Assembly: GCA_030429605.1 (NCBI GenBank)
Contig: JAUIEV010000006.1
Location: forward strand, 42,154 to 106,153
Direction: 5' to 3'
Source: Chlamydiia bacterium
GTDB taxonomy: Bacteria > Chlamydiota > Chlamydiia > Chlamydiales > Simkaniaceae
Length of the DNA: 64,000 nt
The translations under genes and the position numbers were made by a program. A model generated the notes under the pieces. It searched no databases. It was not told where the DNA came from and worked only from the letters and a program-made list of their open reading frames with translations. Positions 5,158 through 10,098 of the stretch are shown piece after piece (position 1 is the first letter of the stretch; every line of letters starts with the position of its first letter).

Positions 5158-5186
5158 TTGCCTATATATTAAAAAAAAAATAGAAT
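5158..5186 (+). promoter_or_regulatory. Sigma-70/66-type promoter for the 5208 gene (TTGCCT-17-TAGAAT) with an A10 tract in the spacer
   Basis: TTGCCT lies at 5158-5163, the 17-nt spacer contains A10 (5171-5180), and TAGAAT lies at 5181-5186. N8-AGGGAGG follows and doubles as the SD for the ATG at 5208. Confidence 0.5.
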
Positions 5187-5207
5187 AGAACTTAAGGGAG
5201 GTCTGTT

Positions 5208-5639
5208 ATGGCAAATGAATTTGAGAAGATTATGGAGTTTTTCACGCTCCCTGCAGAAGAGAAAGGTGATCATCTAAAGGACGTCTTTGAAGAGTCTATC
5301 GAGTTTTTTGAGAAATTCAAGTACACCATGCAAAATGGAACACCTGAAGAAAAACAAGCTATGCTTGATCAGGTGAAGAAAATGCAAGATAAGCTTCAGG
5401 AAGAAACCTCTAAAGTAAAAGAGCTTACAGGATTGAACGACGAAGAGCTGCAGGCATTTGCGAACAATAAAGCGAATTTCAAAGATGAAGACTGGGAAGT
5501 CATCGAAAGTGCCAAAAATACAATTGGACAGCAAGCGGACGAAATCTCCGGGATACTAGGCACACCAAAGCCGGGAGAGAAAGAAGCGAAAAAATCGACT
5601 GGTCCTAAAAAAAGAAAGAAAAAGTGGGTAAAATCGTAA
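5208..5639 (+). CDS. Hypothetical acidic helical protein with a basic C-terminal tail (PKKRKKKW)
   Basis: 143-aa ORF with a strong SD (AAGGGAGG) 6 nt upstream. No catalytic motif. The C-terminus reads GPKKRKKKWVKS. Confidence 0.8.
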   Translation: MANEFEKIMEFFTLPAEEKGDHLKDVFEESIEFFEKFKYTMQNGTPEEKQAMLDQVKKMQDKLQEETSKVKELTGLNDEELQAFANNKANFKDEDWEVIESAKNTIGQQADEISGILGTPKPGEKEAKKSTGPKKRKKKWVKS

Positions 5640-5659
5640 GTCTTAGGCTATAAAAAATA

Positions 5660-5680
5660 CCCCTGTACGGAGTACAGAGG
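5660..5680 (-). terminator. Rho-independent terminator for the 5726-6427 gene
   Basis: Hairpin cccctgtac-gga-gtacagagg. On the minus strand it is followed by a T-run (complement of taaaaaat at 5651-5658). Confidence 0.65.
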
Positions 5681-5725
5681 TATGGATTGTTGAGGACATA
5701 CTGTATTTCTAGAGATACGTGATTC

Positions 5726-6427
5726 TTACGTGTCTCTATTTTCAATTCCTGACGAGGCACCTGGATCACTTAATGAATCCACGCTCATTGAGGTCAGTGT
5801 GCTCATTGCCGAGTTAAGTGTTTTTGATTCACCTTCCGCGTTCTTGGCGAAAGCTTGGTTCGCTTTTGTAAAAGCAGAACCCTCAAGGTTTAAGCCGTCA
5901 AACATGTTTTGAAAAAGTGGGAGCTCTTCTTGCGCCCAGTTTTGGTATGTCGCTGTATTTTTCTTACATCCAGCCTGACCTAAAAACGAATTAATAGCGT
6001 TCGTTATCTCACCATTTGAAGTGGTCTTTCCGTCAGAACGAGTATCTCCCAAGTATGAAATAAGACCTGAAAGTGCAGGATCGATTTTGCTGAGACCGGC
6101 TGCATTTTTCTTGAGGTTTGATAAATAGTCGTTAAGCTCATCCAAAGTAGAGCACCCTTTCACTGAATTATAAATGATCTGCTTTAGGTATGCAGCCTTA
6201 TTCAACTCTGTATGCACGCTGTTTGTAAGCTTGTTACTCTTATCAATTGCTTCAAAAATAGTGAGCATTTTTGAAAGGTGCGCAAGCCATCCCATAGATG
6301 TTGCGCTCACAGCTTTACTTGAAGAAACAGCGCCTTTTGCTTTAACAAGCTCAAGCTCTGCATTATCTCTTAGTTGTAAAGTCACCTTGAGCACGTCAAG
6401 GTGTGATGATTGTGTTTGTGTTTCCAT
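5726..6427 (-). CDS. Hypothetical hydrophilic helical protein (island gene; candidate T3S substrate)
   Basis: 233 aa. The N-terminus is METQTQSSHLDVLK, with no signal peptide or TM segment. It has its own promoter cassette and terminator. Confidence 0.8.
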   Translation of the reverse strand: METQTQSSHLDVLKVTLQLRDNAELELVKAKGAVSSSKAVSATSMGWLAHLSKMLTIFEAIDKSNKLTNSVHTELNKAAYLKQIIYNSVKGCSTLDELNDYLSNLKKNAAGLSKIDPALSGLISYLGDTRSDGKTTSNGEITNAINSFLGQAGCKKNTATYQNWAQEELPLFQNMFDGLNLEGSAFTKANQAFAKNAEGESKTLNSAMSTLTSMSVDSLSDPGASSGIENRDT

Positions 6428-6508
6428 AACTAACCTTATTACCTTTTATTAAACTCGAAAAGAACAGTTTGCTGTTTTTTTCTGAGAAGCCCATTCTCCC
6501 TATAAATA

Positions 6509-6537
6509 ATTTTAACACATGCGAATTAAAATTTAAA
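6509..6537 (-). promoter_or_regulatory. Promoter cassette (TTTAAA-17-TAAAAT, extended TG) for the 5726-6427 gene
   Basis: The minus strand reads TTTAAA (6537-6532), a 17-nt spacer, then TGtTAAAAT (-10 at 6514-6509). TATTTAT-AGGGAG follows, the same -10/AGGGA arrangement as the other island promoters. Confidence 0.5.
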
Positions 6538-6765
6538 GTTTTAATTAAAATAATTATCATTATTTACTAACCATCTATAATGAGATAAGTTTTTTTGTAA
6601 CATGCTTATAATAATAGAGATACAATCATTCTCTAGGGTGATGTCAGTAAAAATTTCATTTTTTATAAAAAAAAAGTTGGAAAAAGAGGGGGAATATTCT
6701 ACTCTGATTCTTACTAGTTGCAACATAGCAACTTACAGAACTTCCCTCCAACCCTAATGTCCTCG

Positions 6766-8159: not shown

Positions 8160-8192
8160 GGCGAGCAACTCTCCCAGTAGCTCGCCTTTTTT
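8160..8192 (+). terminator. Rho-independent terminator of the 6907-8136 gene
   Basis: Hairpin ggcgagc...gctcgcc followed by T6 (8187-8192). Confidence 0.75.
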
Positions 8193-8265
8193 ATATCCTG
8201 CTTATTATTAGTTATTTACATAAATAGTTAAGGGAGAATATTTTAAAAATTTATCAATAAAAATA

Positions 8266-8294
8266 TTGAAAAAGAATGGCTGTACTGCTATAAT
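8266..8294 (+). promoter_or_regulatory. Promoter cassette TTGAAA-17-TGcTATAAT for the 8449 gene
   Basis: TTGAAA lies at 8266-8271, followed by a 17-nt spacer. TGCTATAAT lies at 8286-8294. GATATATA-AGGGAT follows, then a leader of roughly 150 nt. Confidence 0.6.
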
Positions 8295-8448
8295 GATATA
8301 TAAGGGATGCTCTTTGTTGAACAAAGAGAGTAAAAACCGCTTTTTTCAGGTCTACTACTGGGCATTGTTCATGTGAGAAATCACCAGTAGTTCACCTGAG
8401 AGAGCAGGTGGTACAAAAATTAATAATAGTAAAAAGAGGTTAGTTGAA

Positions 8449-9819
8449 ATGGCAATTCATTCAGTTTCACATCAAGCAAGTATGATGGAAGTAAAAAACC
8501 CGACACTTTTACAGCAAGCACTGAATCATCACGAGCTCAAGAGCCGCGATGGAACGCTTGCACAAGTGCGTGCGGATACAGATAAAAATGTTCGAAAATC
8601 TCGTAAACTACGAGAGACGGCAGAGACGTTTCAAGTTCCACAAATCGAAATTACACACGCGACTGTTGCTCGAAGAATCGCTCAAAAGCTAGAGACTATG
8701 GAGCCGTCAAAAAGAGCTGCGGTATTGAAGCAGTTAGGGGATCAGTTTGAAGATAAAAGACACGGTGGAAACGTATTTATGTTCCTTGCACAGATGCAAG
8801 AGAAGTCGATGGATGGTAACCAAGCGGCACTTGTAAGCCGAATGTCTGTTGAGCAAGCAGACCAAAACCAAATGGCTTCTATGAACCAAAACCTTTCAAG
8901 TATCGCAACGTCTATGCAGTCAAATGCCAAAACGCAGCATGACGATCAGGTGAAAGCACAGCAGTCATCAGAAGCATCACAAGGATGTTTTTGGGGGATG
9001 TTAGGATCAATATTGGCAATTGTAGCAGTTGCTGTTGTTGTTGGCCTTGTTACAGGTGGTGCCGGAGATGTTGCTCTTGGCGCTGCTGAAGGTGTTGGAG
9101 AAGCAGCTGGAGAAGCAGCTGGAGAAGCAGCTGGAGAAGCAGGTGGAGAAGCAGCTGGAGAAGCAGCTGGAGAAGCAGCTGGATCTTCTAGTAGTAGTGG
9201 CGCAGCAGGAAGCTCATCTGGCGGAGCTGGATCTTCAAGTAGTAGTGGTGCAGCAGGAAGCTCATCTGGCGGAGCAAGTAGTGGTTCATCAGCTGCCGGT
9301 GATTCAGCAGCAGCTGGAGGAAATGCAACATCGACGCTTGGAGAGGCAGCTGGTGATGCAGCAGCAGATGGTGCTGCAGATGCAGGTTCAGAAGGTGGAA
9401 GCGCGGCATCGGAAGCTGAATCTTCTGAAACAACGTTTTTCCAGAAGGTTTCAAATGCAGCTTCACGAGTTTCAAGATGTATCGGACGCGGCTTTACACA
9501 AATGTGGGGTTCAACTATCGGTAAGGCCGGACTTATTGCTGCAGGAGCAGGGGCACTCAGCTGTACCGTAGCTTCTTCAGTAGAGTCAGCAAAAGCATCA
9601 GGTGACACCAATCAAGCGCAAGGGCTGAGCACGCAGATTACAGCGGACTCAACACAAGGACAGGTGTACACAAACATCCTGAACATGTACAACCAGGATA
9701 TTACGCAGCAAAACACTGCTGAATCACAGCTGTTTGATGCAAATACATCTGCAGCATCGTTTATCAAAACTGCAGCATCAGATATGCAGCAGGTACAAAG
9801 CCTTGGTAACATGTTCTAA
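8449..9819 (+). CDS. Hypothetical membrane protein with two hydrophobic segments and an internal (GEAA)7 / Ser-Gly repeat region (candidate translocator-like or Inc-like T3S substrate)
   Basis: 456 aa with SD AGAGG. The hydrophobic segments are CFWGMLGSILAIVAVAVVVGLVTGG and GKAGLIAAGAGALSCTVASSV. The low-complexity linker between them is encoded by perfect tandem DNA repeats. The N-terminus is MAIHSVSHQASMMEV. Confidence 0.85.
   Translation: MAIHSVSHQASMMEVKNPTLLQQALNHHELKSRDGTLAQVRADTDKNVRKSRKLRETAETFQVPQIEITHATVARRIAQKLETMEPSKRAAVLKQLGDQFEDKRHGGNVFMFLAQMQEKSMDGNQAALVSRMSVEQADQNQMASMNQNLSSIATSMQSNAKTQHDDQVKAQQSSEASQGCFWGMLGSILAIVAVAVVVGLVTGGAGDVALGAAEGVGEAAGEAAGEAAGEAGGEAAGEAAGEAAGSSSSSGAAGSSSGGAGSSSSSGAAGSSSGGASSGSSAAGDSAAAGGNATSTLGEAAGDAAADGAADAGSEGGSAASEAESSETTFFQKVSNAASRVSRCIGRGFTQMWGSTIGKAGLIAAGAGALSCTVASSVESAKASGDTNQAQGLSTQITADSTQGQVYTNILNMYNQDITQQNTAESQLFDANTSAASFIKTAASDMQQVQSLGNMF
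9097..9180 (+). repeat. 12-bp tandem repeat GGAGAAGCAGCT x7, in frame, encoding (GEAA)7
   Basis: Seven consecutive units. Only unit 4 differs (GGAGAAGCAGGT). Confidence 0.95.
9178..9273 (+). repeat. 48-bp tandem repeat x2, encoding AGSSSSSGAAGSSSGG
   Basis: Units at 9178-9225 and 9226-9273 differ at two positions (tct/tca and ggc/ggt). Confidence 0.9.
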
Positions 9820-9842
9820 ATGTCAGAAAAATAAAGACAAAA

Positions 9843-9876
9843 AGCCCAGTGCAGAATACTGCACTGGGCTTTTTTT
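9843..9876 (+). terminator. Rho-independent terminator of the 8449-9819 gene
   Basis: Perfect 12-bp stem agcccagtgcag-aata-ctgcactgggct followed by T6. Confidence 0.85.
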
Positions 9877-9950
9877 ATGTAAAATACATAAGTCATTGTA
9901 GTTTAGTGTGTTAATAATTTTAACATGTAATGCTATATTAATATAAATAC

Positions 9951-9979
9951 TTTAAAATTTATTTATTATGTGGTATAAT
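9951..9979 (+). promoter_or_regulatory. Promoter cassette TTTAAA-17-TGgTATAAT for the 10099-11990 operon
   Basis: TTTAAA lies at 9951-9956, followed by a 17-nt spacer. TGGTATAAT lies at 9971-9979. TATATATA-AGGGAG follows, then a leader of roughly 110 nt. Confidence 0.6.
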
Positions 9980-10098
9980 TATATATAAGGGAGCGTGGAC
10001 CTTCTGCTTTTCATTATCTTATGAAAGAAAAAGGATCATAACCCACAGAGTATATGTAATTTAATAAATAATAGTGCCCGTATGGGTTTGGGGGAAAT

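Follow-up and report, generated by a model that had tools for sequence, protein, structure and literature searches.

Extended -10 promoters with a predicted G-rich transcript start beside a type III secretion operon in Simkaniaceae

The 64,000-nt window analyzed here (C5:42154-106153) comes from the chlamydial assembly G000 (1.79 Mb, 10 contigs, 93% complete) and carries an island of eight open reading frames (ORFs; 5208-12748) between an operon of the type III secretion system (T3SS) and the genes clpX and clpP, which follow from 12751. The analysis concerns a promoter cassette that recurs in this island and the AGGGA sequence that is found 6-8 nt after its -10 hexamer. The T3SS operon is laid out like Chlamydia CT663-CT669. 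It is headed by a chaperone gene and continues with cdsD and with genes for a DUF5398 protein, an 81-aa protein, a TPR protein and a 216-aa protein, and cdsN lies at its distal end. A PDB sequence search with the CesT-family chaperone gave no match, and no Pfam or NCBIfam assignment was obtained for the eight island ORFs. Relatives labelled Simkaniaceae or Simkania were recruited with CdsD; those named below are G002 (genus g3) as well as G010 and G041 (both genus g11). In tblastn searches of the relatives, matches were found only for the chaperone, the 143-aa gene at the left end of the island and the family of its 409-aa protein. For the other island genes, orthology with genes of G002 and G010 is at most putative.

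A preliminary description of this DNA had listed five promoter sites with one common layout. All five are present when the sequence is read directly (Table 1); only the ends given for site 4 (8306) and site 5 (9991) were 2 nt short of the correct positions, 8308 and 9993. Hexamers of the sigma-70 class separated by a 17-nt spacer are found at each of them, and sites 3, 4 and 5 were the top promoter matches in a consensus scan of positions 4500-12500 (10-11 of 12 positions, with TG). Sites 2-5 carry a TG one base upstream of the -10 hexamer (TGTGt, TGc, TGc and TGTGg). Since sites 3-5 each follow the intrinsic terminator of the preceding gene, the island can be read as a string of promoter-leader-ORF-terminator units.

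The leaders of these units differ in length and structure. At site 2, the leader of ~75 nt reaches to the ATG at 6427; its 5' end is mostly unpaired and forms a duplex of -7.5 kcal/mol with the anti-Shine-Dalgarno (anti-SD) sequence. The unit of site 3 has its true Shine-Dalgarno (SD) sequence, GGGGGA, at 6895-6900, followed by the ATG at 6907. The site 4 transcript, predicted to begin with AAGGGATGCTC, has an unpaired 5' tail, AAGGGAUG, and then a highly structured leader of 147 nt (8302-8448) that reaches to the ATG at 8449; the predicted fold has -44.4 kcal/mol (z -4.5) and leaves the first 8 nt unpaired. At site 5, a leader of ~110 nt precedes the ATG at 10099 and a four-gene operon (10099-12748). 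For its GGG, pairing with CCC at about +55 is predicted; taken as a whole, the leader shows no unusual degree of structure (z +0.5).

The common layout holds for sites 2-5 but not for site 1, which has no TG extension. There, N8 and AGGGAG (5195-5200) follow the -10 hexamer, and AGGGAGG is taken as the ribosome-binding site of a short-leader mRNA because it lies 6 nt ahead of the ATG at 5208 (anti-SD duplex -10.6 kcal/mol). The promoter drives the conserved 143-aa gene (5208-5639), the sole island gene that is conserved across Simkaniaceae (42-51% identity; orthologs e.g. L046 11006-11455). It encodes an acidic helical protein, adjoins the gene of the Scc4-like chaperone and ends in a basic C-terminal tail with WVKS in both G000 and G002, as read by eye in the G002 DNA.

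The preliminary description had missed a sixth island site. No ORF lies downstream of it, and an intrinsic terminator is found at 6766-6798. An SD-like GGGGGAAT and a 3' block composed of AACCCTAATGTCC and the terminator echo the unit of the 409-aa gene, and in the absence of an ORF the sixth-site unit (6621-6798) is therefore interpreted as a decayed paralog unit or as a small RNA of ~165 nt. Positions 6650-6798 of this unit fold with a z of -3.3.

Table 1 Coordinates of promoter sites, start-region sequences, further copies of the motif and neighboring T3SS genes. Positions refer to the window unless a contig is given
Feature	Position	Strand	Description
Site 1 promoter	5158-5186	+	TTGCCT 5158-5163, 17-nt spacer containing A10, TAGAAT 5181-5186; 9/12 match
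Site 1 AAGGGAGG	5194-5201	+	Shine-Dalgarno, 6 nt before ATG 5208; predicted 5' end of a ~14-nt leader
Site 2 promoter	6537-6509	-	TTTAAA 6537-6532, 17 nt, TGTGtTAAAAT (TRTGn extended -10; TGtTAAAAT 6517-6509); 9/12 match
Site 2 TAGGGAG	6502-6496	-	N7 after -10 (AGGGAG 6501-6496); predicted T-1/A+1 start, then GGGAG
Site 3 promoter	6849-6877	+	TTTACA 6849-6854, 17 nt, TGcTATAAT 6869-6877; 11/12 match with TG
Site 3 TAGGGAC	6883-6889	+	N6 (AGGGAC 6884-6889); predicted transcript start
Site 4 promoter	8266-8294	+	TTGAAA 8266-8271, 17 nt, TGcTATAAT 8286-8294; 11/12 match with TG
Site 4 TAAGGGAT	8301-8308	+	N8 (AGGGAT 8303-8308); predicted T-1/A+1 start
Site 5 promoter	9951-9979	+	TTTAAA 9951-9956, 17 nt, ATGTGgTATAAT (TGgTATAAT 9971-9979)
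Site 5 TAAGGGAG	9986-9993	+	N8 (AGGGAG 9988-9993); predicted transcript start
Sixth island site	6597-6639	+	GTAACA, 18 nt, TACAAT 6621-6626, N7, TAGGGT 6634-6639
TGTGTTAAAAT	6832-6842	+	Additional extended -10-like core, in tandem, upstream of site 3
Extra copy	C8:10205		TACAAT-N7-AGGGA, before a paralog of the 409-aa gene
Extra copy	C8:11955		TGgTATAAT-N8-AGGGAG, before a paralog of the 409-aa gene
Extra copy	C9:1549		TGaTATAAT-N8-AGGGA, before a 1134-aa FAD-oxidase/methyltransferase fusion gene
Seventh match	C6:106530		Inside a coding region; best read as chance
T3SS operon	5053 down to 3	minus	Layout like Chlamydia CT663-CT669
CesT-family chaperone gene	4637-5053	minus	Scc4/CT663 position; first in the T3SS operon
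cdsD/sctD	2892-4640	minus	Second in the T3SS operon
cdsN ATPase gene	3-1199	minus	Distal end of the T3SS operon

Resemblance between the sites extends beyond the promoter elements. From the -35 to the -10 hexamer, 25 of 29 nt are the same in sites 3 and 4, and the block that follows the terminator, TTTTTTATAAATAGCTTATTATGAGTTATTTA at 6793-6824 (+), recurs at 8187-8218 with 84% identity. With this block repeated as well, the duplication between the two sites extends to the whole intergenic cassette and is not confined to the hexamers. Similarly, the reverse complement of site 2 is 75% identical to site 5 over 55 nt. The preliminary idea of one copied promoter cassette is borne out by this homology, with a cassette of the sigma-66/70 extended -10 type: judged from their sequences, the copies are homologous duplicated cassettes and not convergent matches to a consensus. 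They consequently do not count as independent events within G000. A tgtgttaa(a)a motif that had been noted upstream of the promoters is real (6832-6842, 6519-6509 on the minus strand and 9908-9919) and is a TRTGn extended -10 core. At site 2 it constitutes the extended -10 itself, and tandem -10-like copies lie upstream of site 5 (9908-9939), including TGTAATGCTATATT at 9926-9939.

In the assembly, TGNTAWAAT-N6-8-AGGGA occurs seven times on both strands, compared to ~0.6 expected from 222 TGNTAWAAT and 3184 AGGGA occurrences (1.79 Mb, both strands); four of the seven are located in a 3.5-kb part of the island. The preliminary description had allowed for chance occurrence in intergenic DNA. With intergenic regions delimited by crude in-house ORF calls, AGGGA was found at 6 of 56 TGNTAWAAT sites, whereas 0.15 were expected (Poisson P ~1e-8), and the association is thus not random. 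AGGGA peaks 6-8 nt after the -10 hexamer, whereas other SD-like pentamers peak at 17-24 nt. The preliminary description had asked whether the motif marks a regulon genome-wide. The matches are non-random and for the most part lie ahead of a small set of genes that are specific to the lineage and adjoin the T3SS operon, or ahead of paralogs of these genes; the C9 copy precedes a fusion gene that has no obvious T3SS link. The island genes may be co-regulated.

Elsewhere in G000, compact TATAAT-N6-8-WAGGGG-N5-8-ATG modules are also found at several unrelated genes. Within the window, TATAAT-aagagta-TAGGGGAGG-ttact-ATG at 31944-31961 (C5:74097-74114, minus) precedes a 74-aa ORF; in this module, WAGGG is a plain SD at a transcript 5' end outside the island. 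In many housekeeping genes of this genome, TGnTATAAT precedes the ATG by 33-46 nt, and the start region TATAAT-N5-6-(T/C)ATAA recurs. From this spacing, leaders of ~15-30 nt appear to be usual in G000, and short leaders are typical of its strong promoters.

An alignment anchored on the -10 hexamer comprised 21 sites from three genera. Its invariant part is A-GGG, with the A located 6-9 nt (mode 8) after the hexamer; the preceding base is T, or T-A in AAGGG variants. Conservation, originally claimed for AGGGA, therefore stands for T-1 A+1 (A)GGG, but not for the fifth base, which is A in eight of nine G000 sites and A, C, G or T elsewhere. The discriminator between -10 and AGGG is AT-rich or pyrimidine-rich. 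The distance of AGGG is fixed relative to the -10 hexamer and not to the start codon. At sites 2-5 the ATG lies 17 to ~145 nt further downstream, and AGGG stands 5-9 nt before the start codon of the main ORF only at site 1, so that it was rejected as the SD of the downstream ORF at the other four. A Y-1R+1 'start' element sets the start site ~7-8 bp after the -10 hexamer (bioRxiv 10.1101/2025.01.23.634641). Because the conserved T-A fits this element, the tag is interpreted as RNA positions +1 to +4/+5. The preliminary placement of AGGGA at the transcript 5' end agrees with this, as it sits where the start is predicted, 6-8 nt after the -10 hexamer.

A family-wide scan with TGNTATAAT-N5-8-WAGGG gave six matches in G000, eight in G002 and 0-4 in other genomes (reversed control pattern: 0-2). 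G002 belongs to a different genus; identity with the G000 counterparts is 46% for its chaperone and 51% for its 143-aa protein. It contains ten exact TATAAT-N7-TAGGG sites, six of which are located in the syntenic cdsD-adjacent island, including the promoters of an array of 409-aa-family paralogs, and three before a second cluster of orphan paralogs; the spacers and discriminators of most of the ten are unrelated. Such promoters are also found in the syntenic island of G010 and G041, the count for genus g11 being three. Orthologs of the 143-aa gene in many genera have TA(A)GG or AAGGG after the -10 hexamer, and in most cases the SD is separate. Comparison between genomes gives identities of 38% for the 29 nt upstream of the -10 hexamer and of 28% for the 20 nt that follow AGGG. 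The 29 nt upstream at site 5 share 69% with G002_d, a TATAAT-N7-TAGGG promoter of genus g3. In the L030/L040 orthologs, AAGGGATGCT(A/G)CCCTT is kept while spacer and discriminator have diverged. As the start was retained between diverged flanks (28-38%), its retention is not explained by recent ancestry.

The predicted RNA 5' ends fall into two types. In the relatives, GGG forms the 5' strand of a 5'-terminal stem-loop, e.g. AGGGAAGAG...CUUCUUCCCU, GGGCagaGCCC or AAGGGaugcuaCCCUU, and its pairing probability is ≥0.9 in 9 of 18 leaders (Fisher P 1e-4 vs AGGG-keeping shuffles). The AAGGGATGCT start of site 4 recurs in genus g11, where it is paired with CCCTT. In G000, GGG is paired in only one of seven leaders (site 5; P 0.76), and no conserved 5' hairpin was found. 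The first 8 nt of the G000 transcripts form anti-SD duplexes of -4.1 to -10.6 kcal/mol, compared to a median of -4.0 in real SD windows, and five of nine 5' tags belong to the top ~1% of intergenic 8-mers for anti-SD binding. As in SD-like stabilizers and standby sequences, the tract is unpaired (six of seven G000 leaders), complementary to the anti-SD and not placed to start the main ORF. The 16S genes of the relatives have the canonical anti-SD. The 3' end of 16S rRNA is absent from the G000 assembly, in which GGATCACCTCCTT occurs once only, within unrelated sequence, and the assembly seems to lack the rRNA operon.

These observations are on balance best explained by primary-sigma extended -10 promoters in duplicated cassettes, with AGGG serving as start element and as a G-rich RNA tag used in cis, a reading that is held as somewhat probable and far from certain. 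Sites 2-5, the sixth site and the C8 and C9 copies are read as genuine sigma-66/sigma-70-type promoters with a near-consensus -35, a 17-18-nt spacer and a mostly TG- or TRTG-extended -10. The intergenic cassettes in which they sit were duplicated together with their transcription units, and the genes of these units are lineage-specific and probably T3SS-related. AGGGA would represent the first 5-6 nt of the RNA and not a separate upstream element, with T-1/A+1 7-9 nt after the -10 hexamer and G+2 to G+4 following. The G-rich start is probably functional, to judge from its conservation, and appears to be under selection in several Simkaniaceae genera, acting in cis. T-A-GGG would fix the start site and provide a purine-rich initial transcribed sequence, and the defined transcript 5' end could then be used post-transcriptionally. 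In relatives, GGG and a downstream CCC would close a 5'-terminal stem-loop that protects against 5'-end-dependent RNases. In G000, the tag is now AGGGA(G) and predicted to be single-stranded; it most likely acts as a 5'-terminal SD-like stabilizer or as a ribosome standby site before long leaders. At site 1, it is the SD only.

Several points weigh against this interpretation. Since hairpin and free SD-like tail differ between genera, a function that unites them is one that we infer. The G002 tag AGGGC is a weak match to the anti-SD (-2.6 to -4.4 kcal/mol), and three G000 sites (site 3, C8a and C9) are only average SD matches. Moreover, the kinship of the duplicated cassettes in G000 means that AGGGA could be partly inherited. 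Housekeeping extended -10 promoters of this genome start with ATAA and not with AGGG, a difference that leaves room for class-specific regulation. TATAAT-N7-8-TAGGG occurs at control level in 80 genomes of the order, which makes the tag a lineage-specific solution and not a general chlamydial rule. Finally, a literature search found no start-site map for Simkaniaceae, and the start positions given here are predictions.

One rival explanation is that AGGGA has no function of its own and was carried along in recently duplicated or gene-converted cassettes, perhaps as the fossil SD of a compact promoter-SD-ATG module. Cassette pairs are indeed 75-86% identical well past the functional hexamers, compact TATAAT-N6-8-WAGGGG-ATG modules exist in G000 (site 1 included), and an order-wide enrichment of the motif is lacking. 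Mere hitch-hiking is nevertheless considered unlikely: the start is kept in genera whose flanks are randomized and whose CdsD-operon proteins are only 46-51% identical, the exact N7-TAGGG sites of G002 mostly have unrelated spacers and discriminators, and ortholog alignments keep the start region while the discriminator diverges. About as doubtful is a regulon marker, in which (T)AGGG(A) at +1 to +5 would be bound by a trans-acting factor that recognizes DNA or the RNA 5' end and co-regulates T3SS substrates, e.g. coupled to secretion activity. The element is confined to orphan genes by the T3SS operon and their paralogs, AGGG is lacking at housekeeping extended -10 promoters, two separate orphan-gene clusters are marked in G002, and shared upstream footprints have been predicted for chlamydial effector genes (PMC4652624). 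Conversely, no more than 4-5 nt are conserved, without a dyad or direct-repeat partner and with a spacing to the -10 hexamer that varies from 6 to 9 nt; other genes have compact promoters in which WAGGG simply acts as the SD, the relatives show covariation of the sequence as an RNA stem, and the C9 match precedes the oxidase/methyltransferase gene. The regulator-binding element suggested in the preliminary description is thereby not supported, and no trans-acting factor is indicated. AGGGA fits the A(N)GGA pattern of CsrA/RsmA sites, but PF02599 was absent from 39 of 39 Simkaniaceae genomes while the controls matched. Published Euo, HrcA and PhoB motifs are unrelated to AGGGA, which, compared on its own, resembles neither the 15-bp AT-rich Euo consensus TTAAAAACAAATTTT nor the repeated (A/G)(A/C)(A/T)TTT boxes (PMC4989314).

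The chaperone gene next to the island bears on the same question, since inhibition by Scc4 affects -10/-35 promoters and spares those of the extended -10 type (PMC7403470). The island promoters are accordingly predicted to be active with an Scc4-like protein on RNA polymerase, and the adjacent chaperone may be involved by silencing -35-dependent promoters and leaving extended -10 promoters active, a prediction that is qualified by extended -10 promoters being common at G000 housekeeping genes, too. It would be part of a broader proposal that is judged slightly less probable than a regulon marker alone, namely that T3SS-linked genes of some Simkaniaceae are controlled as a class through the A+1 GGG start, which would act either as an initiation sensor (GTP/ATP-dependent escape or G-slippage) or as the tag of a 5'-end-binding factor that couples substrate expression to secretion. 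The sensor by itself is more improbable again: A+1 GGG would tie initiation or promoter escape to ATP/GTP supply, or would allow slippage on GGG, and in both cases expression would track the nucleotide status of the host-dependent bacterium. GGG at +2 to +4 is the sole invariant feature in the 21 sites, and according to the work of Turnbough and Switzer on pyrG and pyrBI, a homopolymer tract of at least 3 nt at the start is reportedly a prerequisite for reiterative transcription. Near-consensus promoters are typically escape-limited, so that the initial transcribed sequence, which affects output via RNA:DNA hybrid stability, matters (PMC9440211). However, no conserved downstream attenuator partner was found, no single sensed nucleotide is implied because GGG is followed by any of the four bases, and the RNA-level pairing in relatives is explained without a sensor. 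Least credible of all, and very improbable, is control by short upstream ORFs with AGGGAG as their real SD, for which AGGGAG-a-ATG (site 2), AGGGAG-c-GTG (site 5) and AGGGAcataATG (site 3) would be examples. A start codon does come after the element in four cases (sites 2, 3, 5 and C8b), and two upstream ORFs end on or overlap the main start codon. At three of the sites, however, only 1 nt separates the two, which is too little for initiation directed by an SD; the peptides show no conservation, a codon of this kind at a usable distance is missing from site 4 and C9, and the main ORFs have their own SD.

As an observation on the same start codons, three of the four AGGGAG starts are followed by one base and ATG or GTG (AGGGAGaATG, AGGGAGcGTG and AGGGAGaGTG; 6496-6490 on the minus strand, 9988-9998 and C8:11964-11975), a pattern that is possibly inherited. 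Two further candidates found no support. A T7-like single-subunit polymerase would require a promoter conserved over ~23 bp (-17 to +6). This reading was prompted by TATAGGGAGA at site 2; arguing against it, the sequence ahead of TA(A)GGG shows no conservation beyond the sigma-70 elements, and the spacing is variable. A search of G000 for a phage-type RNA polymerase (PF00940) gave no match, which is not decisive as the control set was silent as well. Known RNA families were searched with Rfam in 121 kb, yielding two tRNAs only; sub-threshold matches in the island were terminator hairpins.

The 409-aa protein (6907-8136) is a member of a paralog family with conserved N- and C-termini. A genome search for homologs gave matches solely in the window's own genome and in G002; a pattern search in contigs found none. 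The G000 paralogs are located on C8 (10193-12299) and C10 (8292-9005, minus strand). Since two contigs end inside paralogs, the family appears to break the assembly. In G002, at least five family members form a tandem array (L013 6200-15600). Two 6-bp complementarities were seen: one between the 5' end of site 3, UAGGGACA (6883-6890), and UGUCCC (8146-8160) upstream of the terminator, and one between UAGGGU (6634-6639) and AACCCUA (6757-6769) in the sixth-site unit, likewise just upstream of the terminator. They occur only in the 409-aa unit and its decayed copy and could reflect an interaction of 5' and 3' ends or chance.

Units without an ORF were also found in G002, where two paralogous copies of ~105 nt lie beside the T3SS operon (L046:11590-11714 and L046:13130-13258; C2:501589-501713 and 503129-503257). 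Common to both are TGnTATAAT-N7-TAGGG, a hairpin at the 5' terminus, a loop region with conserved TAACAGTTGTC...GGCCATAACCCCCC, and a terminator that is strong and carries T8-10. With fold z of -4.8 and -4.6, they are candidate small RNAs. The intergenic spacers of G002 further contain many GC-rich copies of GGGCTGGCCCCTGC...GCAGGGGCGGGCGC...CAAAACTCACCAAACTCCCC, which resemble repetitive extragenic palindromes (REP) or miniature inverted-repeat transposable elements (MITE) and are absent from the window (examples: L046 11735-11800 and 13290-13360; L013 5760-5850 and 8090-8400).

To our knowledge, the promoter architecture of environmental chlamydiae is almost unstudied, and the expression of their lineage-specific T3SS-linked genes wholly so. 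A class that can be recognized from sequence (extended -10, T-A-GGG ~8 nt downstream) would be an inexpensive means of picking out candidate secretion substrates and small RNAs from genomes of uncultured Simkaniaceae. The paired 5' end of the relatives and the free SD-like one of G000 would exemplify two solutions to mRNA 5'-end protection that arose from one start sequence. If the element is regulatory, it would add a new control layer, acting at the start of transcription or shortly afterwards, to a phylum whose transcription factors are very few.

Compared to known systems, the island promoters resemble extended -10 (TGn/TRTGn) promoters of the sigma-70 family, such as chlamydial sigma-66 uses for T3SS operons, in a -35 with 4-5 of 6 matches, the 17-nt spacer, TAtAAT, TG or TGTG one base upstream of the -10 hexamer, a Y-1R+1 start 7-9 nt downstream and a position after the preceding terminator. 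The conserved GGG at +2 to +4 falls outside the known definition and marks a small promoter class in G000. The discriminator suggested in the preliminary description does not fit the one that sigma region 1.2 recognizes. The GGGA of that element likewise lies downstream of the -10 hexamer on the non-template strand, but it abuts the hexamer at -6 to -3, whereas the island AGGGA is 6-8 nt away at +1 to +5, its GGGA beginning 7-9 nt after the hexamer, with an AT-rich discriminator in between. A homopolymer run of three at the start is shared with sites of reiterative transcription (B. subtilis pyrG, GGGC; E. coli pyrBI and codBA), and several relatives have AGGGC; the island has neither a conserved attenuator nor a sensed nucleotide. 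5'-terminal stem-loop stabilizers of the E. coli ompA type are matched by G002, G010 and genus g11, in which (A)GGG pairs with CCC and leaves 0-2 unpaired 5' nt; the G000 copies, in contrast, mostly have no pairing partner (one of seven paired). STAB-SD sequences (B. thuringiensis cryIIIA, B. subtilis aprE and ermC) and ribosome standby sites differ in that the island tract occupies the very first nucleotides and is encoded in the promoter start region, and in that G000 encodes RNase E/G. Like them, it is single-stranded, resembles an SD and lies close to the 5' end of a long leader; it is not placed to start the main ORF, and its anti-SD complementarity is comparable to that of real SDs.

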